A stretch of 64,000 nt of DNA, from assembly GCA_016699975.1 (NCBI GenBank), contig CP064994.1, positions 193,222 to 257,221 on the forward strand, written 5' to 3'. Below, piece after piece: positions 6,092 through 56,451 of this stretch. Every line of letters starts with the position of its first letter. Position 1 is the stretch's first letter. The notes beneath the pieces are model-generated. The model ran no database searches. It was not told where the DNA came from and worked only from the letters and a program-made list of their open reading frames with translations. The DNA is from Candidatus Moraniibacteriota bacterium. GTDB taxonomy: Bacteria; Patescibacteriota; Minisyncoccia; Moranbacterales; UBA1568. The position numbers and the translations under genes are program-made.

Positions 6092-6120
6092 AAAATCTCC
6101 CGAAGAGGGAGATTTTGTTT
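6092..6120 (+). terminator. Rho-independent terminator after hup
   Basis: aaaatctccc-gaaga-gggagatttt hairpin followed by a T-run. Confidence 0.75.
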
Positions 6121-6404
6121 AGGAAAATATACCACAGAGGCGTTTTTCTCTCATGCTATTCGAGTAATATTGATCCACCGAGAACGAACAGTGCTTTCGA
6201 ATTAAAATCTTTCTTCCATATTCTTCGCTCGATTGCGTGGAAGTGCGAAGCCCTGCCTCTTGGCGTGAATGACAAAAAGAGAAAGAGGCGAGAAGATACC
6301 GAGAACATACGGGAGTTTTTCTCTTGCCAATAGTGAGTGAGTCCGTTTTTTCTGTAGCGGTTAGACAGAGATTCTTTTGCTGTGGTACAAAGGAAGTGTC
6401 TCTT

Positions 6405-6478
6405 CGGAGAGTCGTATAGTGGTAGTACGCGTGCTTTGGGAGCATGTAGTCCGGGTTCGATTCCCGGCTCTCCGACCA
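6405..6478 (+). tRNA. tRNA-Pro (anticodon TGG)
   Basis: Hand-folded cloverleaf: acceptor CGGAGAG/CTCTCCG (C1:G72, typical of Pro), anticodon loop TTTGGGA, T-loop TTCGATT, A73, CCA encoded. Confidence 0.8.
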
Positions 6479-6500
6479 AAATGAAACTTCTGGAAAATCT

Positions 6501-8602: not shown

Positions 8603-8855
8603 GAAATTGGGAGAGCTCTTGAGGAGGATTCCACTGTTTGGTACGGAGACGATTGGAAAATTCTTTGGACAAAGAGGAGAGCTTTGACGCTATGTTTGCC
8701 GCGCAATTTTTCCCGTATTTCACCGTAAACGGAAGTGGTCATTGAGAGACAGCGCTCGTCTCTCAAGGAATCTGAAAGAGAGGATGCATGAAATCCCTCC
8801 TTCGTTTGGAATAAAGGAAAGAGATGTTCGGACTGAGTTTGTTCTTCTTGTTTTT

Positions 8856-11800: not shown

Positions 11801-12395
11801 CGGAACCTTTTCGGGACCGCAGGGAATTCTTCCTCTTCGAAATGAAGCGAAGTATCAAGTTGTGTGCCGGAATGCCTCGCTCCCGGGGATACGAGCCGTC
11901 TCACCGCCCATCTCAATTGATGTCGGGAAACTCCTCCTGTGTCCCGCGACTCCTCCTGCGAATCGCGTGAGTGTGGGAGACACGATTCAGCTCAGTGCTC
12001 ATTACACAACAGATCCCTCTGCTACTTGTTTGTCGGGAGATCGGGGAGTCGATGTTACGAGCGGAGCGACATGGGAAGTGATGTCCGGAAATGAACGGCT
12101 TTCTCTCGAAGCACAAAAAGGTCTTTTTCGCGGCGTTCGCGTGGGAATCGCTCGGGTAAGGGTGAGCTATCTTCCAACTGTTGCCGTAGAAACATTCCGA
12201 TCAGAAGCGGATATATTGGTTTTCGAGTCGCGCGAATGCTATCGCTGTGATTCGGAGACATCTCGCTGTGGTGCGTTTTGGAATCCGAGTACCGATACTC
12301 CGCCCACCTGCCCCACTGAACCGGACGTTTTTAGTTCGCTCTCACTGTGCCGTGTTTCTTGCTTTAAGGATCGCTGGGAGGAAGTTGCGCCTTGA
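8856..12395 (+). CDS. Large secreted protein with about 10 tandem ~90-aa Ig-like repeats, each with a conserved Cys pair, plus a C-terminal Big_2-like domain and a Cys-rich tail
   Basis: Signal peptide MNQCRLFRGWFWRGVLLATFFGTSFSCAFA; repeat consensus TLxWxSxxAxxCxASxxWSGxxxxxGxxSTGxLxxxxxYxLxCxGxGG recurs throughout; ORF 8742..12395 with the likely start at 8856. Confidence 0.8.
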   Translation: MNQCRLFRGWFWRGVLLATFFGTSFSCAFAANEQTVRVIGGPVSLSELWGGALNTGSLAEWGQGIALHRMETDRENLTLLSGGTLSFSFAPDKPTAFLRGGIFSGTTVVGSWAESLERRDVCDATPANFSAGEKEYSFALCGKKPSVSLQSSDENIVSCSGMSCVAHQTGSVRITATIAPTQTVLWAKQNTETNWQRAGTVTLSEGVLSWPVSVASPPTLSFSMKETNPLPFGSSATLVWSAENAVRCEASGAWQGTRELQSGGFSTGPIFARRDYGLRCWGSGDDTVEKTVSVLVGSPTRGPVVTLTAGSTLIPYGSDTILSWSSENADVCQATGAWVNPGPGTRAPTGSQSTGNLRSDKTYIIECYGSGGSQAKQITVHVIPPSSKPSIQTFSASPVSVVYNKSTTLSWTTQSAASCRAYADPVRSDWDGTRNIEGKETISGLLGTTRFFLECTGAGGKVVKSVDVKVEPQDLPPPTLSFSADESALPYGGSTVLRWESRFADTCRASLDWSGEKERNGSFSQNIGPLSTSKRYQLFCENAAGSVTALVQVFVGDPTGQVRVSLSADQNKVSLGGRTTVRWTTENASTCILNKYQSGTSQIVSRELVGSASTGTLTSSIYYTLTCSNKLGIASASEPVVINLSPGGTFSARPLISFQRDAGYISYNTPTTLRWKAEYADFCEASSNADTPLENWNGRKDISGVSSTGNLIGTTRFTLTCHGSGGTSSASVTATVGDPSQTGPSLKFWADSFTVNPGESTTLRWESTDATRCSASAGWSGSKGTNSGQVYAEKTRNLTETTTFLLSCSSPGGGVSLSVTIFVGSSVVAPSLSLWADAAVVNPGESTILRWSSSSATSCRAFSDPESPLWSGEMSFAGARRTGPLTGDPAAVPPRLTQTYRLVCEGPGGEVSTQTTIGIGVASGIGPEITNFSADAFVIPFDTAPTLRLSSNNADACCLTTDTPDACWDSTRTQWMELPSTNGTFSGPQGILPLRNEAKYQVVCRNASLPGIRAVSPPISIDVGKLLLCPATPPANRVSVGDTIQLSAHYTTDPSATCLSGDRGVDVTSGATWEVMSGNERLSLEAQKGLFRGVRVGIARVRVSYLPTVAVETFRSEADILVFESRECYRCDSETSRCGAFWNPSTDTPPTCPTEPDVFSSLSLCRVSCFKDRWEEVAP

Positions 12396-28929: not shown

Positions 28930-29001
28930 TCCGGCGTAGCTCAGCGGTAGAGCGAGGGACTGTTAATCCCCAGGTCGCAGGTTCGAATCCTGCCGCCGGA
29001 G
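28930..29001 (+). tRNA. tRNA-Asn (anticodon GTT)
   Basis: Acceptor TCCGGCG/CGCCGGA, D-arm GCTC/GAGC, anticodon loop CTGTTAA, T-arm GCAGGTTCGAATCCTGC, G73. Confidence 0.85.
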
Positions 29002-29115
29002 CATCATAGGACTCTGAGCATATTCTGCCCAAAGTTTTGTTTTATCAGAGCCAAAACCGAGAGGTTCTAGGTGAAACCGTCTTTTTATTTTATATAAGCC
29101 ACTAATAATAAAAAA

Positions 29116-31172: not shown

Positions 31173-31410
31173 ATTATTGAAATGCAAAAGTGTTCAAAAA
31201 AAGTTCTAAATCTGCCCTGAATTTGAGCGATTTCAGTTCTGAATATAGCAAATTGGCGGAGCCAAACTCGGATTAGGAGCAGCGAAATCTGCTTCTTTTC
31301 CTTTTACAGGGTCTTGAGCTGCATGTTCGAGTGTACCTATTTTTTTCAATTTCAATGAACATGAAAGCGAGACCGTCTTTGATGATGGAGAACGGTTCTT
31401 TCGCGTTTGT

Positions 31411-31475
31411 CCACTAGGCGGAGCAGCCAAAACAAGGCTTGAGCGGGCCTTGTTTTTGTATATCCTCTGTTGGAG
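31411..31475 (+). repeat. Hairpin repeat family, copy A (truncated, abutting IS30 copy 2)
   Basis: ccactaggcGGAGCAGccAAAACAAGGCttgagcggGCCTTGTTTTtgtatatcctctgttggag; about 90% identical to copy C. Confidence 0.8.
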
Positions 31476-32561
31476 GGTGAGTTCAAGAATTTAATGCCCC
31501 TTTTCCAGTACCCTGGCAAAAACTTCATTCGGCGTCAAATAGTTAAGCGCTTTCCTCGGTCGATTGTTGAGTTTGTCCTGAACTGACCGAACTTCTTTTT
31601 GGGAAATTTTATCAAACGGGCATTTCTTCGGAAAATACTCTCGTAACAATCCATTCAAGTTTTCCACACCTCCTTTCTGCCAACTTTTGTAGGTATCGCA
31701 GAAGTAGGAAGGAAGAGAAAGTTTTGTTTCGTTTCTCCGTGCAAAACATTCTCCGTTCCATTATCTCTCGTAATACTTCTCCTCAATTGCTGCGGAAGCC
31801 GAGAGAAATGTCCCTGTATCGCTCGTTCGCTTTCGACCGCTGTTTTGTTTGGAACTTTCTTTAATCGGCATAGCTTCATTTTTCGCTCGTACTGTACCGA
31901 GAGTACTGACTTCTGTTTTGAGAATATCACGGAATCGGTTTCCCAGTCTCCAAAGTGTGTACGCTTGGTAATGACCGCGGGTCTTTCGTGAATGGGTATT
32001 CTATCCGGAATCGTCTCTTTTCGCGGTTTTCGAGAGAACTTTGGTCGTCTCCGCTTCTGTTTTCGTCGCAGATGTTTGTACCATCCGCCGACCCTTCCTT
32101 CTCCGCGGTAAATGTAATCATAGATGGATTCGTAACTTATCGAGGTATCCGTACACGAGGAAAGATTTTTCGGAGGAGATGTTTTCAACCGGCCGGCTAT
32201 CTGCTCCGGTGAATGTCCCTTCAGGAGTTCGCTTTCGACAAACTTTTTCAGTTTCTCGTTTTGCCATTTTCCAGTTTTCTTTTGTTGGTATTTTTCTTTC
32301 GTCTTTCCGCATACGCTTCAGCTCGGATGGCAACATAGGGAAGGTGCGGACTCGAATTTCTTCGTATCTCTCGCTTGATGACGGAGTAATCTCTTCCAAG
32401 TTTCTCCGCGATCCATGTTTTCTTTTTCTTCATGCGGAGAAAGCTTTCGATTCGCTCTCGTTCAAAGAAGGTTATGGACGTTCCTTTTGGCATATTCATA
32501 GCGTTTTTGGAAGTTAACGCCGGAGTATACCAGAAAAGGGGCTTCGGGGTTTGAATTCACC
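31476..32561 (-). mobile_element. IS30-family insertion sequence, copy 2 (inverted, 1086 bp); no target duplication; transposase degraded
   Basis: Near-identical to copy 1 with the same terminal repeats; the fragments (ORFs 32248..32499, 32118..32399, 31655..32188) carry HTH MPKGTSITFFERERIESF...REIRRN and the core ...GDWETDSVIF...SITRDNGTEN; flanks gag / gtg do not match. Confidence 0.85.
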
Positions 32562-33614
32562 GTGATTTATTTACCATCATTTAAAAAGCCTGTAACAATC
32601 AAGCCAGTAGCTCTAAATGAACTTGGAGAACAGCTAAGTATTTCTATTCCAGATGTGAGGGTGCCAAAGATTGAATTAGAAGAAAAAGAGCAAGAAAAGA
32701 TTGTAAACGATACGATTAAGTTTGTGTTTGGTACCTCACCTAAAGATGCTCTATCTAAAAGTGAATTTGAGAAGAGGTGTTTGATTTTTGCAAGGCATAT
32801 CGGAGAAAAATGGGAAGAGATACTGACAAGTTCTCATCATCCTATCGAGGAAAAACTTCCTGAAGTTATAGCAAAGATGGAAGCGGAGAGTTTTCGACTA
32901 CTGGTTCTATCTGGAGTTTTAGCGATCTATGGTACCGAGGAGCAAATAAAAGTGTTTGTAGAAACTCTTTCAGAGGTTTTGAAGTTAGCAAAAGGTAAAT
33001 CAGGGATTGTTGCAATTATTGCGGTTCCTGAGGTTATTGTTCTTTTGACGATATATATATTTACCTTGCTCGCATTAGCAACTCGAGACTTTAGTCGGTT
33101 AAAGGTATTTACCAATACCAGAGTCTATGGTTGGGTATACGATGGTGAGCCACCAAAAATCCTAGCCCTGAATCACGTTCACTACACCAGCGCATTAACC
33201 GGACATGCCGATAAAGTTGCGGACTTTGTTAGATCTAGACTTGAATCTATGAAGTGGTTAAAGTCTCTACACCCAAGACTGGAGAATATTCAAGATGTCC
33301 AAATACAAGCCAGTTTTCTTCTTAGTATGCTTATGCGCCACAATGATATTAGGACTTGGCCTGATTTTGGAAGATGGTACGCTCAAAGAATCACCTCTAT
33401 CGTAGAAAGGATAAAATATGATGATCAATATGTTAAACAAATAGCCAGTCTTTTTGATGTTCAATCCAAGGATTTGAGGTTGAAATTTTCGGAGTATCTT
33501 ACCGACTTTCGAAAGGCTGGGATGGCTCAGTATCACTGGGAATCCATCAGTCAGAAAGCACTCTTTACACCCGAGGAACTTACAAAGATGAAAGAGGAGA
33601 ACTTAGGAGATTAA
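32562..33614 (+). CDS. Hypothetical protein (350 aa, AT-rich), probably 5'-truncated by IS30 copy 2
   Basis: The ORF opens exactly at the IS boundary; first ATG is about 107 codons in; internal TM segment; no recognised domain. Confidence 0.45.
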   Translation: MIYLPSFKKPVTIKPVALNELGEQLSISIPDVRVPKIELEEKEQEKIVNDTIKFVFGTSPKDALSKSEFEKRCLIFARHIGEKWEEILTSSHHPIEEKLPEVIAKMEAESFRLLVLSGVLAIYGTEEQIKVFVETLSEVLKLAKGKSGIVAIIAVPEVIVLLTIYIFTLLALATRDFSRLKVFTNTRVYGWVYDGEPPKILALNHVHYTSALTGHADKVADFVRSRLESMKWLKSLHPRLENIQDVQIQASFLLSMLMRHNDIRTWPDFGRWYAQRITSIVERIKYDDQYVKQIASLFDVQSKDLRLKFSEYLTDFRKAGMAQYHWESISQKALFTPEELTKMKEENLGD

Positions 33615-33909
33615 GACATAATTTATGTGGTCTTTGGATTTTACTTTTGGAAAAACGAGCTAAAATTGAAACAAAAAATCGGTTAGGTAGGCGTCTAAAC
33701 TAGTCTAATTTCATGGACAACGCTTTCGTTTTTGGAGATGGAGGGGTAATTACTGGAGAAGATTGTTGGGCGAGTGAGAGGAAATAGTGAGGGATTTTAA
33801 CCGCGAGGATTTTGGGGCGACCCTTGCATAATATCAAGCTCCATGTTATCGTCCGCTGTCTGGTTCCTTGACAATTCATGTTCAACAATTCACCTATCGG
33901 AGGTGCAAA

Positions 33910-34741
33910 GTGGCTACTGTAGAAAAGAGTATTCGTCCCATGATATTCAGTGCTCCGGCTATTGGGGAGCGTGAAACGGTTTTTCCCTTGGCTCGAGAGC
34001 TGGTTCGTATTCAAGTTCCGGAAGCACTGATCAAAGATATCCTCGAAGCCTGCGATGGTCAGAGAACTTTGGATATGGTGCTGGAATTGCTTGAATCTAA
34101 GTGGGATCGCGATACATTAGAGAGCTTCTTGCGGCACTTGCACGAGAAAGGGGTGCTGTATGATAGCTCAAACTTGAGCGGTTTCGTTTGGCCGTTCGTT
34201 TCAAATCCGAGTCACTTCTCAAAAGCGGTGACTGATCTTCAGGTAGCTGAGATGGTTGAGCGAGCGTGCTTGAGGCAACGGAATCTTCCATCAAATATGT
34301 TTTTCACGGTGAAGGAGTATTATCCTTTCCAACGATTGGTTTCCAATCGGAAATCGGAACGATCCTTTTCAGGGAAAGTGATTAGCATGGAGCGTGTTGT
34401 TCAAATGCTGTGGGCGGGATATGGAGTTATTGCCGAATCTCAATCAGGAGTGGGCTTTGACCGTCATACCGTTCCGTCGGCGGGAGCATTGTATCCGTGG
34501 CGTGGTGATTGTGAATGGGTCGTTTAGTGTAGGGGAAGAGAAATATGGCAACAGGTCGCTCCTCTATGTTCCGCTTGAAGCGGGGCATGTCGCGCAGAAC
34601 ATTCTTTTGGAAGCGACAGAGTGCGGTGTTGCGACGGTGGAGATTGGCGGATTTCTCGAAGAGCCGATGCGAGACGCATTACGATTGCCGACGGAATTCG
34701 TTCCGTTGACCACCGTGGTGTTTGGCGATTCTGCCGGTGGT
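33910..34741 (+). CDS. SagB-type dehydrogenase (McbC-like nitroreductase-fold, TOMM 'B' protein), frame changed near 34508-34515
   Basis: SERSFSGKVIS...TVPSAGALYP hallmark motif, followed in the next frame by VVIVNGSFSVGEEKYGNRSLLYVPLEAGHVAQNILLEA...GGFLEEP; GGAGG RBS then GTG at 33910. Confidence 0.8.
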
Positions 34742-35970
34742 GGGGATCATGGACATCACCTGCCATGCGGATTCGAAGTTTGGTGGGCATATCCAAAAGC
34801 AAATGGATACGTGTTGCCGTTCAATCTCGTGTTTGCTCGATTGGCAAAAGCTTCCGGTGGAAGCGAAGAGTGGTCATGCGGGCGTTCTTCCGATCCTTTC
34901 GTGGCGTATGAAAAAGCGACTGCGGAAGTGCGGGAGTGGGCGGCATGCAGTCTTCCGCATAACCTTGTGAAGTCGAATATCGGATCGCTTGCGAGTGCGG
35001 TAGCGCCGGACAGCATAGTGGCGTTTCATCCCGATCAGTACGCTTCGCCGAGTTTTCCGTTCTTTCCCTTGAACAAGAAGGGGTCTACGAATGGAAGGAA
35101 GCCACAGACGTGGTAACGTGTGAAATACATTTCATTCTGGCTGACTGTATCTACTTCCCCTACTATCCGGAGTATCCGCGCTGTGCAAGTGCGAATTCTT
35201 CCGGAGCGGCTGCGTATCCCACAAGGATTGGCGCAGTTCGGCGCGGGGTGTTGGAGTTGATCGAGCGAGATGCCTTCATGATCGTGTGGCTCAACCGTTT
35301 GGTGATGCCAACGATCGCTGGTGGTAGTTTTCCGGATGATGTTCGGTGTCGTATTCGCAACTTGGAAGAAGCGGGTTTTGAAGTGATCATCAAGGATGCG
35401 ACACTTGATTTGGCTCCGGTTGTGTTGGTATTCGCGCAGAGCGAAGACTTGCATTACACAACGTGCTCCGCTTGCTGTTCTTTCAATGTTGACAGGGCGC
35501 TGAATCATGCTTTACTGGAGGTCGAAGCGGCGGTGTATTGTCGTTTGGCATTCGGCTCTTCAGAGCCGATGCTTCCCGAAGATGTGCGGATGACGCAGGA
35601 TCACGGGAAGCTGTACGAGCAAGAAGCTTTTTTCCGACAAGCGGATTTTCTGAAAGAGTCTCGGCTCTTGAAAGACTTGAGTGAAGTCGGCGAGGGCGCT
35701 TGCTTTCACTGGGAAATGCTGTTGGTGCGTATCGCGGAACAAGGAAGGAACGTTCTGGTGGTCGATCTTGAAAATCCGCATGTGGACGGTATTCAGTCAA
35801 ATCTGTTCATAGTGAAAACTTTTGTGACAGGATTGGTGCCGATAAGCTTCGGGTACAGAGAAGAGCCGTGCGGGATGCAAAGAATCTACGAAGTCCCTGT
35901 GACTTTTGGATTCCGTTCCGACCCGATTCGTTACGACGAACTCAACAGGTTCCCGCATCTTTACACATAG
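34742..35970 (+). CDS. YcaO cyclodehydratase domain protein (TOMM 'D' protein), frame changed near 35045-35075; contiguous with the SagB reading frame with no intervening stop
   Basis: N-part SCGRSSDPFVAYEKATAEVREWAACS; core SSGAAAYPTRIGAVRRGVLELIERDAFMIVWLNRL (YcaO ExxERD motif). Confidence 0.8.
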
Positions 35971-35993
35971 CTTGCGAAAGGGGGTGATGATCC

Positions 35994-36158
35994 ATGCAAG
36001 CAGGAAAAGCCGCGAAGGGGCAATCCTTCGAATGGTGCGTCACGGTTGAACCGCGGCGTTCGGGTAGAGGGCACGAAGCACTCTCGAGCAAAGGGAGCAG
36101 CAGCTCCGGTTCGTGTCAGCGTTCCAACAGCTGTCGGGCAAGCGCGATTCAACGCTAA
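35994..36158 (+). CDS. Candidate TOMM/RiPP precursor peptide (54 aa): MQAGKAAKGQSFEWCVTVEPRRSGRGHEALSSKGSSSSGSCQRSNSCRASAIQR
   Basis: Not in the ORF track because it is under 60 aa; RBS aaggggg 9 nt upstream; Ser/Cys/Gly-rich C-terminal core; immediately downstream of YcaO and followed by two strong hairpins. Confidence 0.5.
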   Translation: MQAGKAAKGQSFEWCVTVEPRRSGRGHEALSSKGSSSSGSCQRSNSCRASAIQR

Positions 36159-36174
36159 TCGCAACGGTTCGGCA

Positions 36175-36232
36175 GACTAAAGCGCTTTAGTCTCAACAAG
36201 GGGTCTTGGTCATGATGATCACGACCCCCCTT
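36175..36232. terminator. Tandem hairpins (20-bp perfect palindrome agactaaagcgctttagtct, then ggggtc...gacccc + T-run) between the convergent precursor and peptidase genes
   Basis: Read directly from the sequence. Confidence 0.7.
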
Positions 36233-37078
36233 TCATTTCCCAAATTCTGATTTTTCGTAAATTTTTTTTGGTGTGAGCTGGACGATATCGTTCCATGATG
36301 TGTCAGGATGTCGCTTTCGATACGCTTCAACCATTTGGTAGCCGATCGCATAGCCTGCCCAGAGAGGGTATTCTTTTCCTTCCAAGAAGACAGGATAGTA
36401 CATCTTTGTATTGCGAAACCGCTTCTTGAATTTTTCATACCACACGAGTGCTTCTTTGAACGGGAGGGCTTGCGAGGGCATATGTGCCTTCACGCCGAAG
36501 AGAAAGGAAACAAAACTTTCCGCTACTCCCTCAAAGACGAGGTCGTCCAAAAGATTTTTTCTCTCGTAGTGGTTATCCATTACCGTGTGCATGAACTCGT
36601 GACAGATCGTTTCGGTGAGCGCTTCTTTCCATCGCTCAGTTTCCTGCGGTGAAACATACAAGAGCAGGGTATTTTTGTAAGGAGTATAGCCCGAGACGCC
36701 ACCCATTTTGTCTTTGACGAAGGTGCTAAAGGTTGGGAAAAGAAATATATTGGTTGGTGAGGTGGAAACGTTTTTGTGACAAAGTTGGAGAGCTTCTTTT
36801 ATGGTGCGTAGCAATTCTGATTCCGAAATACTGAACGCTTGATGTTGAGTATTGGCATTCTCGAAGTCGGGAATATTATACGTGAGATTATCGTGGAGGT
36901 GTTTCTTTTTGGTGAATCCGGCGTAACCGATTGCTTTTGAGTAGGGAACTTCTTTGACGAAATTTCCAATGAGAGTCTCGTTATCGAACGCGGGATCGTA
37001 TTTTGTGAAAAGTTGAAGCGTTCCAATGTTACCCGATTTTCCCTTTTTCTGTATGTCAGTAATGGTGTGTGCTTGCAT
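36233..37078 (-). CDS. Putative zinc metallopeptidase (HExxH; DUF2268-like)
   Basis: TICHEFMHTV motif; 281 aa; AT-rich. Confidence 0.6.
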   Translation of the reverse strand: MQAHTITDIQKKGKSGNIGTLQLFTKYDPAFDNETLIGNFVKEVPYSKAIGYAGFTKKKHLHDNLTYNIPDFENANTQHQAFSISESELLRTIKEALQLCHKNVSTSPTNIFLFPTFSTFVKDKMGGVSGYTPYKNTLLLYVSPQETERWKEALTETICHEFMHTVMDNHYERKNLLDDLVFEGVAESFVSFLFGVKAHMPSQALPFKEALVWYEKFKKRFRNTKMYYPVFLEGKEYPLWAGYAIGYQMVEAYRKRHPDTSWNDIVQLTPKKIYEKSEFGK

Positions 37079-37182
37079 AGGGTTTTGGCAATAGATGGTT
37101 TATCCTTATAATTTCTTGAGGAAAGACTAGCACTTTTTCGGAGAAGTGTATATCGAAGAAGTCTTCTTCGGAACACATTTTT

Positions 37183-38865
37183 CTAGAAAGCAAAGATGAG
37201 AAGCTTACTTATTTGAGCCAAAGTTCCTTCCGGATACGGTATCGCTTGCTCCCATTCAAAGGTTCGGAAGCTGTCCCGCCAAGCGAGCACTAGTGAAGAA
37301 CTGGAGTATGAAAGCTCCAGTTTTTCTTTATCTGAAGGGTTTTTCAGAGGTTCGAACCTTTGAGAAATAGAATTTACCTGGAATGAGAACCCTTGAAGCT
37401 TTAAAATCGGATTTGTGGCTTCTATCAAGAACTTTCTTTCTTTGATAAAGAGGTTCGAACCTAGGCCATTTATGATGAGTTTTTTGGTTTCCTCATTTCC
37501 TTCCTGAAATCTATCTTTAATATCTTCAGCAATACTTAAAGTTTTCTCTAATCGATCAATCCATGTTTCTGAGGCCTTCTCAGAATCAGCTAGTATCTTT
37601 TTGAGTCTATCCCTGTCTTGTAAGATGGCTTCTCGCTTAGGCGTAAAAACCGCTTCAGGGATCTCGTTACTTAGTCGGAGCTCCAGTAACCTATCCAGTT
37701 TATCTTCCACGCTCTTTAAGGCTCGTTTCTGGCTTTCTAGAAGTCTTTGCTGCTCTTCAATGCTTGATGCCTCTTTGCTCCTAAAATAGCGTACAGCCCA
37801 CTCCTTAAAGCTTGCAGGGATGCTTATGGATTCAAGTAAACTGCCAATTTGGCTTTCTAGTTCCTTTTCCTCAATTACCTTTTTAGGGCAATCGGGATTC
37901 TTCTTCCCCGTACAGTGATAGTAAGTATAAAAGTGAACATTGCCATTCTTATTTCTCTTCACTTTATTTTCAGCCGTGATCATGGCGCCACAGCTACCGC
38001 ATTGAATAGTTCCTCTATAGGTGAAATCGTATTTATCTGGCCGAGTAGTGCCTCTCTTTCCTAGTATCGTTTGAATCCTTAAGAACTCTGCTTTGGTGAT
38101 TATGGGAACATGCTTCCCTGAATACCAGTTCCCGCTTCCTAGCGGATACTCAAACTCTCCGTAATAAAAAGGATTATTCAACATTGCATACCATGTACTA
38201 TTAGCGATAGGACTTCCGTTTCGATTTCTCAATCCCCATTCTTTCGTGGCTAATTGATATGCCTTCATTGGTGTGTATTCACCAGAAGCTATCCCCTTAA
38301 ACGCTTTCCTGATCACATCGAAACGTTCAGGGTCGGTAAGCACCTCCTTGTCTCCTTTGAGTTTCATCGGATTAGCGGCATACCCATAAGGGGCTACTCC
38401 AGGGAACCAGCCTCGCTCTGCCTTAGCCCGAAGTCCTCTTTTGGTATCTGTACTTAAGTCTCGGATGAACTGGTTAGCCATTCCCAGCTCCACATTCATA
38501 AGGAGTACATTGTCAGAAGGGTAGTAATCTCGGCCTTGGGTCTTTATGTTTGTGATAAAGCCCTCCTGCAACAAGTGGCTAATCATTCCGCCATCAAGGG
38601 CGTTACGAGTGAGACGGTTAATTTTCCAACAAAGAATACCATCGGCCTCTCTTTTTTGGATTTTGCTAATCATTTGATTGAAGACAGGTCTTCCAATCGC
38701 TTTTGCAGACATGGATTCAGTAAGTACCTCAATCACGTTTAGATCATACTGAGTAGCTATCTTTTGAAGCTCATGAACCTGAGATTCAATAGAGGCCATT
38801 TGCCTATCCTCGGATTCGCTCGACTTACGAGCGTAAAGAATGTATTTATTTGCTTTCTCATACAT
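37183..38865 (-). CDS. Large serine recombinase (phage-integrase type)
   Basis: N-terminal resolvase domain YARKSSESEDRQMASIESQ...R; recombinase domain; zinc ribbon CGSCGAM...YYHC; coiled-coil C-terminal region. Confidence 0.88.
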   Translation of the reverse strand: MYEKANKYILYARKSSESEDRQMASIESQVHELQKIATQYDLNVIEVLTESMSAKAIGRPVFNQMISKIQKREADGILCWKINRLTRNALDGGMISHLLQEGFITNIKTQGRDYYPSDNVLLMNVELGMANQFIRDLSTDTKRGLRAKAERGWFPGVAPYGYAANPMKLKGDKEVLTDPERFDVIRKAFKGIASGEYTPMKAYQLATKEWGLRNRNGSPIANSTWYAMLNNPFYYGEFEYPLGSGNWYSGKHVPIITKAEFLRIQTILGKRGTTRPDKYDFTYRGTIQCGSCGAMITAENKVKRNKNGNVHFYTYYHCTGKKNPDCPKKVIEEKELESQIGSLLESISIPASFKEWAVRYFRSKEASSIEEQQRLLESQKRALKSVEDKLDRLLELRLSNEIPEAVFTPKREAILQDRDRLKKILADSEKASETWIDRLEKTLSIAEDIKDRFQEGNEETKKLIINGLGSNLFIKERKFLIEATNPILKLQGFSFQVNSISQRFEPLKNPSDKEKLELSYSSSSLVLAWRDSFRTFEWEQAIPYPEGTLAQISKLLIFAF

Positions 38866-40984: not shown

Positions 40985-41170
40985 ATGATCTCTACAAACG
41001 AAGCTAGAAGTCTCCTACCGAATGGCGCCTCCTACTCCGATCAAGAAGTTGAGAAGATCCTTGAAGACCTTTATTTTCTAGGGAACCTTTCGTTGAAGGC
41101 GTACCTTGATGAGCGTTCTAGTTCTCACGAACTTTTATTAAAAAGCCTTCGAAATCCTCCTGCAAGTTAA
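40985..41170 (+). CDS. Hypothetical small protein
   Basis: 61-aa ORF with RBS. Confidence 0.3.
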   Translation: MISTNEARSLLPNGASYSDQEVEKILEDLYFLGNLSLKAYLDERSSSHELLLKSLRNPPAS

Positions 41171-44100
41171 ACTCGAATCTTTCGAAAACATGTATAAGTA
41201 TCCTTTCCATGAGGTAGTTTTCTTGATTTTTTTGGCTACCTTCTTTGCTAAGCCAATCAGGTGGATTTTGTAAGAACTTTTTCATTAGTTCTGATTCTGG
41301 AAGAAATTCTTGAACATTTATTTTAAAGATATCAATTTTAAGTGATTCACTGTCCGTAGCCTCTAAGGGAGAGTATTGAGTTAAGATCCCCAGCCTATTT
41401 TTATTGAGAACAAGAATATAGGAATCTCTTTTATTATCGTAAAGCTCGTAAACGGGTATATCCTTATCTTTAACCTTATAAAAGCCGTTTATTTCCTTAG
41501 GAAGACTGCCTTCAGCGATGTTTAAACGCCATTTAGGAGTGTATTTTTCATTCTGGTTTGCTTCAAAGAAGGATCTCCAGCTGGCATTATTTACTGCAAT
41601 AATAATTGCCTCACCAGTGGTGGAAATATCCGCTATTTTTTGATCCAAGTCAGCAGCACTTATGACTGCGGAGCGATCCTTAATTTTCTTTAACAGATCC
41701 GTGTTTTCTCCTATTACCATGTTCCTGCCAAACTCAAATCCTTCTTCCATTCCTAAAACATGAACGTGCCAGGATACGGAATCATCGAAGAAACCGGCTT
41801 TATCAAATAAAGTGTTTACTCCTAGACTTTTGAGATCACCTGAATATGGTTCGTTGCTCTTATCTTGAAACAGACTGTAGTGGCGGAGAATACTTCGAAG
41901 TTGATCATTATCGTAAAAATCTTTCACTACGCTTTTTTTAAAAATCGCTACCTTTTTCGGGGAAATTCTTAATCTTCTTTTTTTATCTATTTCTTCATTT
42001 TCTTGGCTTTCTTTAGCACGTACTAGAAGATCCTTGAAGCTATCTACTTTCTCTAATGCTTTCCCATCCAGTAAAAAGCTCCAGTTACTAGGATTGGCTT
42101 TCATGTCTTCTAGAGTACCCAATAAACTTCTTGTCCCTTCAGCAAGGTATGCCAAATCTCTACTGTGAGGCAGGTTAATGCCCGCTATTTCATCGGGAGT
42201 TTTCTCCTTTAAGATTTCTAATGAATATACTGCATAAAGCCTTTCAAGTTTTGAAAGAATATCAATCGTATGTGCTTCACCTTCTTCTTGTCCTTCCATT
42301 TCCCAGTTATCCCAGCCCCAGAAGCTTTCTACTGCAAAGTCATGAACAACGGAGAAGAGCTTAGTAAAATCATTAATTTCGCTAGGAAGTTTTCTTTTTA
42401 CTTCATCATAAAATTCTTTCACCTTTTCGTTATCTTTGTCTTGTTCTAACTCGTATAAAATCCAGCTAGCTACACCAAAGAACATCTCCTTTCTCTTTCC
42501 ATCAAGATAATCGTAAAGTTTCTCATCCTCATCAGAATCAGATCGGCCAGAATCCCGAATATCTTTGAATAACTTTGAGGTAACAAGCAGAAACTTTTGA
42601 AAGTTCAAAGTATCTCTATTGCTAAATGAAGCTTTTAATAAGCTTTGAAAAATCTTCAATATTTCCTCTGCAAAAAGTTTTATCTCTTCCTTTGAGTAGT
42701 TCTTATCTTCGAGCTTTTCTTCCAAAGGATGTCTTGATAGGTCATTGAGATATCTCCATATCCTGTCGAAAATGAAGGCTGCTCTCGTCTCATCATTTTT
42801 TCTTTTGGCCTCTATAGCAATGTGGTAAAAGCGTAGGGGATAATATGCAAACTCTTGAAATATTAGGTGGTCTTTATGGTCAATCGCCTCTTGAAGAAGC
42901 CGGATGGGTAAGTACATTACGTAGCGATTAATATCCTTACTTACAGAACTTAACCCATTTTCAATAACTTCGCTTATGTCTTTTGAGATCCAGGAAACTG
43001 ACTTAAAGCCCCCAAACGCTATTTCAAACCTCATATCGCTAGCTTGCTTTGCAGAAAATCCTCCTCCGTGCTGTTCCAAATAAGAGTAAAACTCCTTGAT
43101 TAACTCGATGTAGAAATCGGTGATTTCTCCCAACTCCTTAGTCTTCTGTTGCTGAATAAATTCATAACAACGAAGTTTAATCTCAGAAATCTCATTTTGG
43201 ATCTCATCATAGTCAGTGCTATTTCGTTTGATCACGAACAGCTTATTGGCCATTTCTGAGACTTTTGCTTTTTCTGACGGCGATTTAATTAAATCCTTGT
43301 GTATCCATAGGAGATTTCCTTCGCCTTTCTCAAGATATGATAAGTATCGTGGAACAATCCAGAAATAGGGATCTCTTCCTTTGTATTCCTCATCAGTGTT
43401 TGAAACCTCATCTGAGTTTTTGAGAAGAGCGCTGTAGTCTTCAGGTAATCTTTTCTGAAATCTTAAAAGAAAACTATTTAGCTTATTTAGTTTAAAATCG
43501 TAGAATGTACCAGTTTTAAGTGTTTTTATTGGAATAAATCTATTTTTATTCACAGGAGAAAAAGGGCTGACTTCAACTACCTTTTTGAACCTTTTAAGTT
43601 TTTTGTTGAGGACGCCATCTCCTATTAACTGGGTTACTTCGTTATCTAATAAATTAAGAAACCGGATCTTAATAGCATGTAAAAACTCCTTCCTTTCTTT
43701 TTTAAAGCTAAAATTATTCGAAAATAGGTTTAAAGTCTGAAATAGAGAGTAGATTGTTCCCGCAGCTATAAGCACCAAAGGAATAACCCCGAAGAAATTA
43801 ATGTTTCCCCACCAAATGTAGTACAGGAAGTAAAGAACCTCAGCTATTATTAAAAGTGGGAAAAATTTACTCCTTTTCAATAAAATTCTTCCCCTGTAAG
43901 GATTCTCGTTAGCTATCTCTTGGGCAATGAAAAATGCCAATCCAATTAAAACTGCGCCTATTCCTGCATGGATCGTGATTAAGTTTTGAAAATGGTTTTC
44001 TTCTCGTAATATCTCGGAGAGGTTGCTGAATTTGTTTTCGATCCAATAAGATAGATTTTCACAGCATATATTATTGAACTGATGAAGAATTCCATTAATC

Positions 44101-44369
44101 CAATTGGAATGGGAGAGCACAAAGAAAAAGGCCAATACCAAGACAACTGCAAGAATTTCCCACCCTGATAACCATAAAAGTGTAAGCTTTGAGTTTATAA
44201 GTTCCTTATGATCTTTTCTTAACTTTTTCTCTTCTTTGACTAAGCTAAGTAAGGAAGGTTCTCTTTCCCAAGAAAAGACTTTTAGGATCGCTTTTAAAAC
44301 TTGTACTGTCTTCAATTCTTCTTTCATTGTCGTGTAGTCAAACAAGGGGTAATCAGGGCATTTTCTCAA
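41118..44369 (-). CDS. Large hypothetical protein (1083 aa) with an N-terminal 4-5 TM region and a long soluble domain
   Basis: Uninterrupted 3.25-kb ORF in the AT-rich island; no motif I can assign. Confidence 0.7.
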   Translation of the reverse strand: MRKCPDYPLFDYTTMKEELKTVQVLKAILKVFSWEREPSLLSLVKEEKKLRKDHKELINSKLTLLWLSGWEILAVVLVLAFFFVLSHSNWINGILHQFNNICCENLSYWIENKFSNLSEILREENHFQNLITIHAGIGAVLIGLAFFIAQEIANENPYRGRILLKRSKFFPLLIIAEVLYFLYYIWWGNINFFGVIPLVLIAAGTIYSLFQTLNLFSNNFSFKKERKEFLHAIKIRFLNLLDNEVTQLIGDGVLNKKLKRFKKVVEVSPFSPVNKNRFIPIKTLKTGTFYDFKLNKLNSFLLRFQKRLPEDYSALLKNSDEVSNTDEEYKGRDPYFWIVPRYLSYLEKGEGNLLWIHKDLIKSPSEKAKVSEMANKLFVIKRNSTDYDEIQNEISEIKLRCYEFIQQQKTKELGEITDFYIELIKEFYSYLEQHGGGFSAKQASDMRFEIAFGGFKSVSWISKDISEVIENGLSSVSKDINRYVMYLPIRLLQEAIDHKDHLIFQEFAYYPLRFYHIAIEAKRKNDETRAAFIFDRIWRYLNDLSRHPLEEKLEDKNYSKEEIKLFAEEILKIFQSLLKASFSNRDTLNFQKFLLVTSKLFKDIRDSGRSDSDEDEKLYDYLDGKRKEMFFGVASWILYELEQDKDNEKVKEFYDEVKRKLPSEINDFTKLFSVVHDFAVESFWGWDNWEMEGQEEGEAHTIDILSKLERLYAVYSLEILKEKTPDEIAGINLPHSRDLAYLAEGTRSLLGTLEDMKANPSNWSFLLDGKALEKVDSFKDLLVRAKESQENEEIDKKRRLRISPKKVAIFKKSVVKDFYDNDQLRSILRHYSLFQDKSNEPYSGDLKSLGVNTLFDKAGFFDDSVSWHVHVLGMEEGFEFGRNMVIGENTDLLKKIKDRSAVISAADLDQKIADISTTGEAIIIAVNNASWRSFFEANQNEKYTPKWRLNIAEGSLPKEINGFYKVKDKDIPVYELYDNKRDSYILVLNKNRLGILTQYSPLEATDSESLKIDIFKINVQEFLPESELMKKFLQNPPDWLSKEGSQKNQENYLMERILIHVFERFEFNLQEDFEGFLIKVREN

Positions 44370-44455: not shown

Positions 44456-44548
44456 AGGTTCGAACTTCCTCCAGTCCGCGGAGCAGGCAAAACGAGGCTG
44501 AACAGCGCCTTGTTTTTTGTTACCCCTTGTCGGAGTTCGAACCTCTTA
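44456..44548 (+). repeat. Hairpin repeat family, copy B
   Basis: GGTTCGAACttcctccagtccgcGGAGCAGgcAAAACgAGGCtgaacagcGCCTTGTTTTttgttaccccttgtcggaGTTCGAACctc. Confidence 0.8.
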
Positions 44549-44635
44549 ATTAAATTGTATGATACACAATAATAAATTATTGACAAACGATAAGTAATAG
44601 AATAGGATAAAGATGTAAATATTAGAGGATTTTTT

Positions 44636-45330: not shown

Positions 45331-45391
45331 TTGATCGATAAAGCAGAAAGATGATTAAGATTTACGAAGAAAGAGGAATTAAGCAGCTTCA

Positions 45392-45516
45392 GAGGTTCGA
45401 ACACTTTCCATTTATCCCTCCACCCCTCTATAGGACAAGGTTCGAACTTCATCCAACAGGTGGAGCAGCTAAAACAAGGCTTGAGCAGGCCTTGTTTTTG
45501 TATATCCTCTATTGGA
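45392..45516 (+). repeat. Hairpin repeat family, copy C (two GGTTCGAAC motifs plus the hairpin)
   Basis: aGGTTCGAACac...cctccacccctctataggacaaGGTTCGAACttcatccaacaggtGGAGCAGctAAAACAAGGCttgagcagGCCTTGTTTTtgtatatcctctattggag. Confidence 0.8.
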
Positions 45517-45593
45517 GTTTGGATTTGGTATAGACAAAACTTTTAAATATGCGATTATTATAAATCGTTCTTTTCCATCCGTACCTATATTTA

Positions 45594-46431: not shown

Positions 46432-47028
46432 TCAAAGTTTATTTCCGTATTTCTCAATAAAGTATTTGACAGGATAGACCAGCTCTTTTTCTAGCGCTTC
46501 TTCCAGAGTGAGCCATACTGGTTTGACTCCTTCATCGTTTATTTTTATCTCGCCGATATTTTCAACTTTGGTGGTGTAGAGATGCCACTTGTGATTATCA
46601 GCACCGCGACGACACTCATCGCCGATGACATCTTCTTCCGAAAAGAGTCTTACACTATGAGCCTCAATACCTGCTTCTTCCTGCAATTCTCGCTTTGCAG
46701 CTGTTGCTGCATCTTCTCCAGTATCTAGATGCCCTGCTGGAATAGCGAAAGCGAAGGGGTAGATAGTGCGTTCAAAAAACAGAGCTTTGCCGTCTTCATT
46801 GAACACAAAAACACCCACGCTTTCGTGCCAGTATTCTTTTGTTGATTCGTCTACCCACCAGACTGTCTTGGGGTCAATGACAATGAGACGAGGTGATTTA
46901 TCGCCACAGCTATCGCAGAGGTAAAAAGTCTTCTCCCCTTCGAAAACCCGATTGATGCTTTCGGAGTGACACTTTGAGCAGTATTGATGGAACTGGTTAT
47001 CCGTTGGCAGAGGGAAGGCAATCTTCAT
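46432..47028 (-). CDS. NUDIX hydrolase with an N-terminal zinc-ribbon
   Basis: CSKCHS...CDSCGD; Nudix box GHLDTGEDAATAAKRELQEEAGIE. Confidence 0.8.
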   Translation of the reverse strand: MKIAFPLPTDNQFHQYCSKCHSESINRVFEGEKTFYLCDSCGDKSPRLIVIDPKTVWWVDESTKEYWHESVGVFVFNEDGKALFFERTIYPFAFAIPAGHLDTGEDAATAAKRELQEEAGIEAHSVRLFSEEDVIGDECRRGADNHKWHLYTTKVENIGEIKINDEGVKPVWLTLEEALEKELVYPVKYFIEKYGNKL

Positions 47029-54564: not shown

Positions 54565-56451
54565 ATGAAGAGAGAAATATTCCGTTACCGCCTTCTTTTT
54601 GGAATCACGGCGGTGATAGTATTTTTTCTTACTCCTTCTTCATCTTTTGCTGCGCCTTCCATTGCTTCTGTTTCGGGGACCTTCTCTCCTGGAGAAATGA
54701 TCACGATTTCGGGAAGCGGTTTTGGAACCAAGGCTCGTCCCGGGCCGATTCTCTGGGATACTTTCGAAAGCGGAGCAGCGGGCGATGTTGTTGCGAACGA
54801 GACGGGTGGTGCTCAACCCTTTCTTCACGAAGGTGACCTTGCCTCATACGGCACTTGGATACTTGCCGGTCGCGGTGCAGTTTCGGGAAATCAAGTCGTT
54901 TTAAATGGAGCTGCGCCAAAGCCAGGGTCAACGCTTCATGCACGCGCCACGTTTTTGAGCGATCAATATACCGGTCTCGGTCTCTTCGTTCCGTTCTCCC
55001 GATTTGCAACTGGGCAGGACCTCTATATTTCCTATGCGTATCGATTTACTCGAACCGGTGCCAGCTTTCCTCGACGAACTTCGGCTTTCTCTCTCGTTCA
55101 CGAAGCCGGAGCGGAAGCTCTTTCTTTTGGGACTGCATACGGATCGTGCGAAACGGGCGGATACCGACAGCGTGTGGAATCTCTCGGGACCGAATACCCC
55201 CTTAATACTGATGGGACTTCGATAAATGGAGAGTGGGTTCGTTTTGAACAATCGCTTCAGCAGTCGGGTGATGGAGCAGCAAATGGCAGCTGGGTGAGTA
55301 CGATCTATCGCTCTTCGCCGCCTTCAAAGGATATGCGCGTTTCACTTCGGCAAATTTTGAGAACGTCGTCGGCAATTCCTTCCGCGATTGTTCTTGGAGC
55401 GGTGCGGTATGAGATGTGCGGGAATGATCCGGGAACGATCGATATCGATGATGTGTATATCGATACGACGCCTGCTCGTGTTGAGCTCTGCGATACTCCA
55501 ACGTGGGCGGCGCGCAACGAGTGTGAGGCGGGACTCCCATCTTTGTGGAACGAGGAACGTATCAATCTCACGCTTCGGGGAGGAAGTTTTTCTTCGGGAA
55601 CAAGGTATCTTTACGTTATCGACGCCTCAGGTGCGGTGAATACGGTTGGCTTTCCCATTTCTTTCGGAGAGACTCGGCTTGCCGACGAGACCGCGCCTCT
55701 TCCTCCAAGCGCTCTTCTTGCGTCTCCTCGTGCTTCGTCGGTTTCGTTGTCGTGGATGCCCTCAACTGACCGCGATATTTCGGGGCAGGTGGTTTCGGGC
55801 TTTGATCATTATAGTTTGGAGCGATGCGAGGGGAGTTCGTGCGAAAATTTTTCGGAGATCTCTTCGGTTTCTTCTGACTCTTTCGTGGATCGCAGTCGTG
55901 CGCCGAGCACCGCCTATGCGTATCGAATACGGGCGATTGATCGCGCAGGAAATGCTTCGTCATGGTCGGATATTGTTCGAGTGACGACGCTTCCTCTTTC
56001 GTTTGTTTCGTGTGAGACGGTCAATCAAACGAATTTTTCGGAGTCACTCTACAGCGGATACGGTGCTCCGTACGATGTTTTTTCTCCTCAGACGATCCTT
56101 CTTTCGACGAGTTGCCAAGAAGGAAATATTCATACGGTCAAGCCGACGGTCGGCGTTCCGGGAGATATGGCGAGAATTGTCTATACGACGGGGTATCGCT
56201 ACGATCCGACGGTCTGTGCATGGCAGCCGTTTTCTCTTGACTGTACGGGTGTTCAAAACGGAAAGTGGTGCCAAGGTTTTGCGACGACCACCCTCACCAA
56301 TGAAACTCTTTTTACTGCTACCGCCTCGACGCCTGCTTATGTCGCGGGGATGACCTGCTCTGTACAAAATGGCTCCTGGAAATGCGGATGTCGTGATGCG
56401 AATTGTTCCACCTTTTCGTGGCAAATACAAGGAGCGAAAAAAGAATATTAG
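54565..56451 (+). CDS. Secreted protein with an IPT/TIG-like and a fibronectin type III domain and a Cys-rich C-terminus
   Basis: Signal peptide; SIASVSGTFSPGEMITISGSGFG (IPT); LSWMPSTDRD...YAYRIRAIDRAGNASSWS (FN3). Confidence 0.65.
   Translation: MKREIFRYRLLFGITAVIVFFLTPSSSFAAPSIASVSGTFSPGEMITISGSGFGTKARPGPILWDTFESGAAGDVVANETGGAQPFLHEGDLASYGTWILAGRGAVSGNQVVLNGAAPKPGSTLHARATFLSDQYTGLGLFVPFSRFATGQDLYISYAYRFTRTGASFPRRTSAFSLVHEAGAEALSFGTAYGSCETGGYRQRVESLGTEYPLNTDGTSINGEWVRFEQSLQQSGDGAANGSWVSTIYRSSPPSKDMRVSLRQILRTSSAIPSAIVLGAVRYEMCGNDPGTIDIDDVYIDTTPARVELCDTPTWAARNECEAGLPSLWNEERINLTLRGGSFSSGTRYLYVIDASGAVNTVGFPISFGETRLADETAPLPPSALLASPRASSVSLSWMPSTDRDISGQVVSGFDHYSLERCEGSSCENFSEISSVSSDSFVDRSRAPSTAYAYRIRAIDRAGNASSWSDIVRVTTLPLSFVSCETVNQTNFSESLYSGYGAPYDVFSPQTILLSTSCQEGNIHTVKPTVGVPGDMARIVYTTGYRYDPTVCAWQPFSLDCTGVQNGKWCQGFATTTLTNETLFTATASTPAYVAGMTCSVQNGSWKCGCRDANCSTFSWQIQGAKKEY

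Follow-up and report, generated by a model that had tools for sequence, protein, structure and literature searches.

A compact peptide-modification module of probable linear azole type, likely a recently decayed copy, in a Candidatus Moranbacteria genome

Can a bacterium still make a modified peptide when the enzyme that should modify it is read in three pieces, and what would that peptide be? The question is raised by a locus in a 64,000-nucleotide (nt) stretch of DNA, hereafter the window, from a metagenome-assembled genome (MAG) of Candidatus Moranbacteria (Moraniibacteriota; contig of 1,048,819 bp, ~1.05 Mb). An initial annotation, made from the sequence alone, had read there a cluster of the thiazole/oxazole-modified microcin (TOMM) type for a peptide that is synthesised ribosomally and then modified post-translationally (RiPP), in a host whose gene content resembled that of the Candidate Phyla Radiation (CPR); the guess about the host was right, since Ca. 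Moranbacteria are CPR bacteria. Our analysis indicates that the locus is likely a compact RiPP module of the linear azol(in)e-containing peptide (LAP)/TOMM type, of a kind common in Patescibacteria, and that the copy here has recently decayed. The module consists of a gene for a fused modifying enzyme, a gene for a precursor peptide of 54 amino acids (aa) at 35994-36158 and a convergent DUF2268 protease gene at 36233-37078. Its extent is as follows.

33756..37289, no strand assigned: whole conserved module, homologous to the three-gene unit of other genomes (blastn against fetched loci, numbered from L001)

The modifying enzyme

The enzyme is encoded in three overlapping plus-strand open reading frames (ORFs) of 219, 240 and 286 aa, referred to here as fragments A, B and C.

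33868..34527, plus strand, frame 1: fragment A, a domain resembling a RiPP recognition element (RRE) and the first part of a SagB-type dehydrogenase, as far as PSAGALYP
34394..35116, plus strand, frame 2: fragment B, the C-terminal part of SagB (EEKYGNRS...VEIGGF) and the N-terminal part of YcaO (SCGRSS...KATAEVREW)
35110..35970, plus strand, frame 1: fragment C, the C-terminal two thirds of YcaO (ANSSGAAAY, LELIERDAF, LLEVEAAV, C-terminus FPHLYT)

Past PSAGALYP, fragment A is out-of-frame reading until its stop at 34527. The initial annotation had described two adjacent frames with two enzymes. Both domains are real, the SagB hallmark PSAGALYP lies at 34474-34497 in frame 1, and the two YcaO motifs that had been quoted are present (SCGRSSDPFVAYEKATAEVREWAA in frame 2, LELIERDAFMIVWLNRL in frame 1), but they belong to three fragments, in frames 1, 2 and 1, of a single fused gene. 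The way in which Pfam domains are split across the ORFs pointed to a single broken gene and not to two: the Nitroreductase profile matches fragment A over positions 2-40 (22.5 bits, just below the cutoff of 23.5) and fragment B over positions 94-166 (31.6 bits, above it), while YcaO (PF02624) matches fragment C over positions 96-324 only (104.3 bits, E 1e-29, cutoff 25.7), the first ~95 profile positions being encoded in another frame. TIGR03604 matches fragment C over profile positions 94-374 with 122 bits, and this fragment is deposited in GenBank as a separate 286-aa protein (QQS21115.1, 'YcaO-like family protein'), one of the window's deposited proteins, QQS21093-QQS21138. TIGR03605 matches fragment B over profile positions 96-172.

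Joining the three pieces at the apparent frame changes gave a 701-aa reconstruction, which was used as a query and recovered 331 homologues. Nearly all of the best 120 of these 331 carry both Pfam domains, mostly within 720-750 aa and with a few shorter partials, and several are named Moranbacteria, Paceibacterota or Patescibacteria. Overall, intact homologues of the fusion number more than 300, with lengths of 725-750 aa, and most are from Patescibacteria. The closest homologue among these 120, P0001 (741 aa), is 84-91% identical to the window pieces. Its residues 1-197 were placed by tblastn at 33910-34503 (92% identity) and residues 252-445 at 34499-35080 (91% identity); by alignment and tblastn together, residues 437-741 fall in frame 1 and residues 198-251 have no counterpart in the window. 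A tblastn search found no second copy of the fusion within the window. The enzyme is one fused polypeptide, made up of an RRE-like N-terminal domain, a SagB-type flavin mononucleotide (FMN) dehydrogenase and a SagD-type YcaO, and this order of three domains is kept in ~30 loci of CPR bacteria and Proteobacteria. An AlphaFold model of intact P0001 (predicted local distance difference test score, pLDDT, 86.9; predicted template modelling score, pTM, 0.82) was matched by Foldseek to the heterocyclases LynD, TruD and MusD, to archaeal YcaOs and to the oxidases BmdC and McbC.

Profile searches matched both the YcaO (PF02624) domain and, below the curated cutoff, the SagB-type one (TIGR03605), and the best NCBIfam matches, SagD-type TIGR03604 and SagB-type TIGR03605, bear out the TOMM/LAP-type chemistry that had been read from motifs. 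TIGR03604 scores 144 bits (E 5e-42) on the reconstruction and 148-166 bits (E 1e-43 to 1e-48, over nearly the full profile) on the intact homologues P0001, P0007, P0013 and P0019; TIGR03605 scores 40 bits over profile positions 97-172 only on the reconstruction and 52-64 bits on intact relatives. The acidic YcaO residues, whose absence had been named beforehand as grounds for rejection, are present in KATAEVREW and LELIERDAF. In 40 members of the family E394, E397, E504, E507, R508 and D509 are invariant, and a profile search of the Protein Data Bank (PDB) aligned the ExxE and ERD motifs of the family with EAIE and E(L/I)VERD of MusD and TruD. On the dehydrogenase side, the window has EEKYGNRS and NRKSERSF, and K266, Y267, R146, S148 and R150 are invariant in the family; from studies of McbC and BcerB, the Lys-Tyr motif is said to be catalytic and RxSxR to bind the FMN phosphate. 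The strands between these two motifs are deleted in the window. The C-terminus of the family reads FPHPYT, and FPHLYT in the window and in the intact copy at L009; azoline-forming YcaOs reportedly end in a proline-rich PxPxP, as Dunbar and colleagues are said to have described in 2014.

The absence of an E1-like or Ocin-ThiF-like partner, which the initial annotation had pointed out, stands: searches of the fusion, of the flanking ORFs that were scanned and of the conserved neighbours of the family turned up no such domain. That annotation had taken the absence to suggest a standalone YcaO, forming azolines or thioamides, or a partner encoded elsewhere, but it is most simply explained by the fused N-terminal RRE-like domain. 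RREs fused to dehydrogenases are known from clusters of the LAP, cyanobactin and thiopeptide types, and in some cases they may be vestigial there (PMC7470986). In the present family the first ~125 residues of the fusion are conserved throughout, with 24-38% identity even in Proteobacteria, and residues 10-79 of the P0001 model are predicted to form three strands followed by three helices (E10-12, E23-26, E31-34, H38-47, H54-61, H67-79; pLDDT 82-91). This is the topology of an RRE, a PqqD-like winged helix of three strands and then three helices that binds the leader. Pfam gave a weak winged-helix match to the domain, and the PDB profile search aligned, below threshold, family positions 35-84 with N-terminal residues 35-83 of MusD and TruD, which we take to be their leader-binding (RRE) domain. 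It seems from the predicted fold that the fusion may carry its own leader-docking domain.

Precursor, protease and the chemistry they point to

Downstream of the enzyme gene the module contains the following features.

35977..35987, plus strand: Shine-Dalgarno sequence AAAGGGGGTGA, 6 nt ahead of the peptide ATG (read directly; kept in L001 and L003)
35994..36158, plus strand: precursor gene, 54 aa, MQAGKAAKGQSFEWCVTVEPRRSGRGHEALSSKGSSSSGSCQRSNSCRASAIQR (from conservation, leader motif and Ser/Cys-rich core)
36174..36193 and 36200..36228, no strand assigned: pair of hairpins in the gap where the peptide and protease genes converge (minimum free energy -29.8 kcal/mol, z = -3.64)
36233..37078, minus strand: DUF2268 (PF10026) HExxH (HEFMH) zinc metalloprotease gene, 281 aa, intact

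The 54-aa ORF had been proposed as a candidate precursor, and our data support its being a genuine conserved gene for a LAP-like precursor. The peptide is 94-96% identical in L001, L005 and L009-L012 and 72-74% identical in L003, L013 and L015; many differences are synonymous, and the ratio of nonsynonymous to synonymous substitution rates (dN/dS) against L003 and L015 is 0.08-0.13, indicating purifying selection. The exact sequence is absent from the protein collection, which suggests that the gene was left unannotated in the deposited genome, and the peptide has no Pfam or NCBIfam match. A scan of the region just past the fusion gene in distant loci, followed by a search with a hidden Markov model (HMM) built from 11 seed peptides, recovered a peptide family with the leader motif F-x-W-x-V-x-V-x-P-[RK] and then a short Ser/Cys/Gly-rich core. 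Examples are MKKTTANKQPKRFIWSVKSKPRTSQMASMKSSDSSGQSAQSKD (L016) and ...KKFSWKVTAEQKPAPGTIRCQEQCSSGKCSGKCNKDK (L021), and among Proteobacteria ...KSLSWKVSVKPRRAGRSAVPMGCSCCGGK (L029, a betaproteobacterium) and ...RSFKWSIATRPRPVASDQVATLGCGGCGCK... (L037, an alphaproteobacterium). The relatives' precursors are 40-60 aa long; the motif and the Ser/Cys-rich cores recur beside the fusion gene in ~30 CPR and proteobacterial loci, and the position of the peptide co-varies with the fusion gene across phyla. The ribosome-binding site and tandem terminators that had been noted around the peptide fared unevenly. The Shine-Dalgarno sequence, a strong one, and both hairpins exist, but a scan for consensus terminators called neither hairpin. 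The stems are conserved, with paired base changes seen by eye in the L001/L003 alignment (in the first stem a G-C to A-T double change in L003), and the pair is likely a bidirectional terminator.

The HExxH peptidase had been put forward as a plausible leader peptidase, and synteny supports both its place in the cluster and that guess. PF10026 matches it with 74.2 bits (cutoff 23.6, profile positions 4-194), HEFMH being followed downstream by GVAESF, and no hydrophobic signal sequence is apparent by eye at its N-terminus. By tblastn, a DUF2268 homologue adjoins the fusion, convergently or co-directionally, in L012-L027, L031, L032, L034, L036, L038 and L046, and one also lies beside some loci with YcaO only (L041-L043, L060). 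When neighbours were clustered without supervision, no gene but DUF2268 proved widely conserved, and it adjoined the fusion in 18 of the CPR loci tested. The distant syntenic homologues score 83-112 bits in Pfam, and a dN/dS of 0.08-0.09 indicates purifying selection on the protein; a search of PHROGs gave no match. It is therefore a probable leader peptidase, inferred from synteny. Searches for YcaO together with DUF2268, or for DUF2268 alone, retrieved nothing relevant from the searchable literature.

For intact relatives these parts would combine into a pathway, in which the ~740-aa enzyme acts on the precursor and a cytoplasmic DUF2268 HExxH metalloprotease completes the process. The N-terminal domain would dock the leader, the YcaO domain would use ATP to cyclodehydrate Ser and Cys residues to azolines (-18 Da each), the fused dehydrogenase would oxidise azolines to azoles (a further -2 Da), and DUF2268 would cut off the leader, all with no separate E1-like or ThiF-like partner. 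An azoline is 18 Da and an azole 20 Da lighter than the unmodified residues; the shifts first given for a mass-spectrometric check, -20 Da for azolines and -2 Da for azoles, were wrong. Azoline formation followed by oxidation to azoles is the most likely chemistry judging from sequence comparisons, since the SagD type is the best match, a SagB type is fused throughout the family, no TfuA was found among the scanned neighbours and the peptide cores are Ser/Cys-rich.

Two alternatives concern what the enzyme does and to what. The family might perform another YcaO chemistry, such as thioamide or amidine formation or peptide cleavage, as a standalone YcaO, and the missing E1-like or ThiF-like partner, the scores under the TIGR03604 cutoff and the close structural match to MusD (7u58), described as a YcaO-mediated ATP-dependent peptidase, would all agree with this. 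Yet the SagB-type FMN dehydrogenase that is fused family-wide, with Lys-Tyr (EEKYGNR) and RxSxR kept, makes sense only with azolines, the SagD-type score is about three times that of the thioamidation model (144-166 bits against 46-57 bits for TIGR03266 on full-length proteins), and the Ser/Cys-rich cores and the lack of TfuA among scanned neighbours count against it too; we regard such a chemistry as quite unlikely. It is extremely improbable that the 54-aa ORF is not the substrate and that the enzyme would modify a protein or peptide encoded elsewhere. The peptide's absence from the protein collection and from the Pfam and NCBIfam models could be taken that way, but its position, ribosome-binding site and reading frame are conserved, its dN/dS is ~0.1, and next to the fusion there are peptides of the same leader type both in remote CPR loci and in Alpha- and Betaproteobacteria.

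With azole formation on the 54-aa precursor as the preferred reading, we tentatively propose, as an idea that could well prove mistaken, that the family is a self-sufficient single-chain azole synthetase, that its leader is near-universal in CPR bacteria and Alpha- and Betaproteobacteria, and that DUF2268 represents a previously unrecognised class of RiPP leader peptidase in CPR bacteria. Some observations on distant relatives belong here. Full-length relatives of the fusion with 26-35% identity occur in Alpha- and Betaproteobacteria (L028-L051; Reyranella, Cupriavidus, Trinickia, Pandoraea, Achromobacter), beside peptides with the same leader and without DUF2268. A conserved ORF of ~400 aa that lacks any Pfam match is common to nine proteobacterial loci, and L028, L032 and L033 have a related ABC-type exporter, with a Peptidase_C39 domain in L033, the sole representative scanned. 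The most distant relatives (L064-L091; Actinomycetota, Nostocales) have the reversed order, YcaO and then a SagB-type domain downstream, and it seems from these sequences that fusion or adjacency came about in more than one arrangement.

The state of the enzyme gene

No uninterrupted frame for the modifying enzyme was found in the window. The frame changes were called relative to loci with 87-91% DNA identity, with L001 (87% identical to the window) as the reference for deletions, and apart from a harmless 3-nt insertion at 34318 in the window relative to L001 there are two lesions.

34497..34499, plus strand: point at which 167 nt are deleted, with ~54 SagB-core codons gone (P0001 residues 198-251; MAFFT alignment of the window with L001, gap at 34498)
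35066..35070 (35068), plus strand: 1-nt deletion, CCCTTTGAA in relatives and CCCTTGAA here, which restores frame 1

The longer deletion removes Y215 and F241, invariant in 40 of 40 family members, and strands E196-202, E213-218 and E226-231 of the P0001 model, three core strands of the nitroreductase fold. The shorter one, 570 nt further downstream, splits YcaO between ExxE (frame 2) and ERD (frame 1), at a place that is a loop (residues 434-447) in the model. As assembled, the gene could not yield a functional enzyme, while the precursor and protease genes are intact, and we conclude that it is probably a recently broken pseudogene. Because the fused enzyme is disrupted, no modified peptide is expected in this genome. 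The dN/dS of the broken gene against intact copies is still low (0.11-0.18), so the damage, if the lesions are real, must be recent.

Two further candidate signs of decay were considered and set aside. A Tyr that is invariant in the family (EYPRC, Y to C) and a near-invariant Pro (FPHLYT, P to L) are replaced in the window, but both changes also occur in the intact 741-aa copy at L009. Relaxed selection was the other, but the fragment dN/dS is not above the 0.105 found between intact copies, and supports nothing beyond 'recent'.

A second lineage, represented by L005-L008 from four independent samples, has also lost most of the gene, keeping only its last 285 codons. The cut there is equivalent to window position 35072, 4 nt from the 1-nt deletion, the sequence upstream of it is unrelated, and each of the four contigs ends within ~95 nt of it. 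This suggests insertion of a repeat or insertion sequence (IS) at the same spot in L005-L008, and the lesion in the window is possibly an excision scar; the stretch standing in for the 5' part of the gene at these loci has no match in the window with up to 3 mismatches allowed. The repeated decay of the enzyme gene, in the window and in the L005-L008 lineage, hints at a dispensable trait with fast turnover. The unmodified peptide may also serve some purpose by itself, which would account for the retention of peptide and protease after loss of the enzyme in two lineages. At L005 the genes beside the truncated module (2413-10925) encode Fic, LigB, an FMN reductase, a glycosyltransferase and an RND efflux pump together with its membrane-fusion protein, a neighbourhood unusual for a CPR genome.

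A recently broken pseudogene has to be weighed against two readings under which the enzyme would still work. The cluster could be functional and the frame breaks errors of MAG assembly or consensus, the real gene being an intact 741-aa fusion. Such errors would suit the position of the 1-nt deletion in a short T run (TTT to TT), the adjoining IS30-like gene that is likewise split over three frames, a fragment dN/dS as low as between intact copies, and lesions that total 168 nt, a multiple of three. A loss of 167 nt, however, is atypical of consensus error; it takes out invariant residues and three core strands and shifts the frame by itself even were the 1-nt change erroneous. The large housekeeping ORFs of the window are intact (PolA 881, RNase Y 510, PBP 766, ThrRS 579, DnaG 634 and RpoD 486 aa), a truncated copy is found in an independent lineage from four other samples, and we consider a functional cluster unlikely. 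Alternatively, the fragments might be translated separately and reassemble into a split enzyme that works in part or in full, such as one that forms azolines with YcaO only. At 35110 a GTG shares bases with the stop of fragment B (GTGGTAA), GGAAGGAAG stands ahead of this GTG, and the split falls in the predicted loop, but this coupling-like sequence is native coding sequence, identical in intact homologues. Two invariant residues and three core strands would be missing from the dehydrogenase, fragment B lacks a natural start and a ribosome-binding site and would begin with ~25-35 out-of-frame residues, the RRE-like domain would be severed from the YcaO domain, and a split enzyme is thus very improbable.

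Several points nonetheless weigh against our reading of a LAP-type module with a broken enzyme gene. Calling the gene a pseudogene presupposes a correct assembly, presumably a long-read one as for the rest of this MAG series, and here the frameshifts in the neighbouring IS30-like gene count as well as the fragment dN/dS, which, being no higher than between intact copies, gives no independent signature of decay. The RRE assignment consists of a predicted topology and sub-threshold profile matches only; the role given to the protease comes from synteny only, and the proteobacterial relatives are without DUF2268. Even intact members score below the curated NCBI cutoffs (219.25 for TIGR03604, 78.4 for TIGR03605), so that they form a divergent branch filed as a formal member of neither model, and the searchable literature contained no biochemical test of any member of the fused family.

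Genomic setting and known systems

The module had been described as cargo inside a mobile island. Its homology borders are sharp (blastn; 33756/33820 on the left, 37136/37289 on the right), with 87-92% identity to L001, L005, L006 and L009-L012 between them, and the flanking genes vary between genomes; but the module has backbone GC content, and the mobile genes look as if inserted beside it. The following features lie next to it.

31491..32499, minus strand: broken IS30-like transposase gene in three frames (HTH_38 match)
32562..33614, plus strand: 5'-truncated gene, 350-aa ORF, caspase domain lost (P0130 residues 243-592, 98% identity)
37183..38865, minus strand: large serine integrase gene, outside the module (Resolvase, Recombinase and Zn_ribbon_recom domains; phrog_95 integrase, E 1.5e-64)

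The GC content per kb over 34-37 kb is 0.51, 0.51 and 0.47, against 0.36-0.42 in the flanks and 0.45-0.55 in the genome backbone. The contrast with the neighbours, which had been taken to suggest acquisition in pieces, is real, but the odd party is the AT-rich sequence on both sides and not the module. On the left there follow outwards the caspase-family remnant, the IS30-like gene, a DDE_Tnp_4 transposase gene and a tRNA-Asn gene (28930-29002). The 350-aa ORF was rejected as a member of the cluster: it is unrelated to the gene upstream at L001 and encodes a truncated caspase-family protein, the part of the 592-aa P0130 that is absent from the window copy being the N-terminal Peptidase_C14 domain and the cut adjoining the IS30-like gene. 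On the right, homology to integrase-free genomes continues into the integrase ORF, covering ~106 nt at its 3' end (37183-37289), so that its last ~35 codons would be encoded by sequence common to integrase-free loci, and beyond the integrase lie ~7 kb of unknown ORFs. We conclude that the region around the module is variable and rich in insertions; the status of the module itself as cargo is uncertain. As candidates for a mobile origin, the tRNA-Asn gene was dismissed as an attachment site, for the repeat search showed no downstream copy of its 3' end and only unrelated repeat families, and carriage by a phage was dismissed because no relative turned up when IMG/VR viral contigs were scanned with the family alignment.

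Among the repeats of the region are a 66-nt family with a terminator-like hairpin (31410-31475, 44470-44535, 45452-45517), several copies of a motif resembling a tRNA T-arm, AGAGGTTCGAAC (37346-37370, 37449-37473, 45391-45415), and an inverted pair (37441-37460 and 44535-44554) that brackets a ~7-kb segment beginning with the serine integrase gene; these repeats may be remnants of attachment sites. Three large ORFs of the window have no Pfam match at E <= 1e-5: 41118-44369 (minus strand, 1083 aa), 8742-12395 (plus strand, 1217 aa) and 54565-56451 (plus strand, 628 aa). The 1083-aa ORF, in the AT-rich segment past the integrase, has no Pfam match even at 1e-3 and no PHROG match. The closest intact modules, at L012 and L015 (TPA_asm MAGs), are labelled 'uncultured Bdellovibrionales', labels that look unreliable. 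A NUDIX gene is found 3.6 kb from the module at L015, and its protein shares 87% identity with the product of 46432-47028 in the window, where the distance from module to NUDIX gene is 9.3 kb and the integrase element lies between; because of this identity with the Moranbacteria protein, the labels are not evidence of transfer between phyla.

For this genome the cluster means little: it is probably inactive, the organism is not to be counted as a producer, and expressing a frame-'corrected' cluster would misrepresent what the cell makes. The family, by comparison, is a very compact azole-peptide system of ~3.5 kb with hundreds of intact members in ultra-small, host-dependent bacteria. Its defined leader motif and candidate new leader peptidase make it tractable for heterologous expression, and it could be used to test whether a fused RRE and dehydrogenase activate YcaO in place of an E1/ThiF partner.

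RiPP clusters in such organisms had been called poorly described, which was an overstatement: the cluster type is already known bioinformatically, and the window copy is a further, decayed member. In a Microgenomates genome, Sharrar et al. (2020, mBio; PMC7298704) reported a LAP cluster made up of YcaO, nitroreductase and peptidase genes with a precursor beside them, and they found 110 further LAP clusters in 93 CPR genomes, 89 of them with a nitroreductase beside YcaO. Those clusters, known as predictions, agree with ours in phylum-level hosts, gene set and a short adjacent Ser/Cys precursor. They differ in that YcaO and nitroreductase are described as neighbouring genes, fused here, and in that the copy in the window is disrupted. 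The passages on those clusters mention no fused polypeptide, RRE-like N-terminal domain, DUF2268 identity or F-x-W-x-V-x-V-x-P-[RK] leader. Within the searchable literature, outside which most subscription papers fall, we found no description of a single-chain RRE-dehydrogenase-YcaO architecture, of the peptidase as a DUF2268 protein or of the shared leader motif.

The module resembles McbBCD (microcin B17) and SagBCD (streptolysin S) in directing a YcaO and an FMN dehydrogenase at a Gly/Ser/Cys-rich core behind a leader, and McbC and McbD are structural matches to the fusion, McbC being a profile match as well. Both systems need a separate E1-like protein, McbB or SagC, for leader binding and YcaO activation; here there is none, dehydrogenase and YcaO form one chain with a leader-binding-like N-terminal domain of its own, and the scores fall below the SagB and SagD cutoffs. 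Bottromycin YcaOs likewise act without an E1/ThiF partner (PMC7136475), but they are standalone enzymes to which neither a dehydrogenase nor an RRE-like domain is fused, and a macroamidine is the product of one of them. Of the cyanobactin oxidases ThcOx and CyaGox, CyaGox is a profile match to the SagB part, although the module has no PatA/PatG proteases, no macrocyclisation genes and a different leader motif. The best structural matches, LynD, TruD and MusD, are single chains with the RRE first and YcaO last, the places that the RRE-like domain and YcaO have here, and the middle domain, which is E1-like in LynD and TruD, is an FMN dehydrogenase in the present family.

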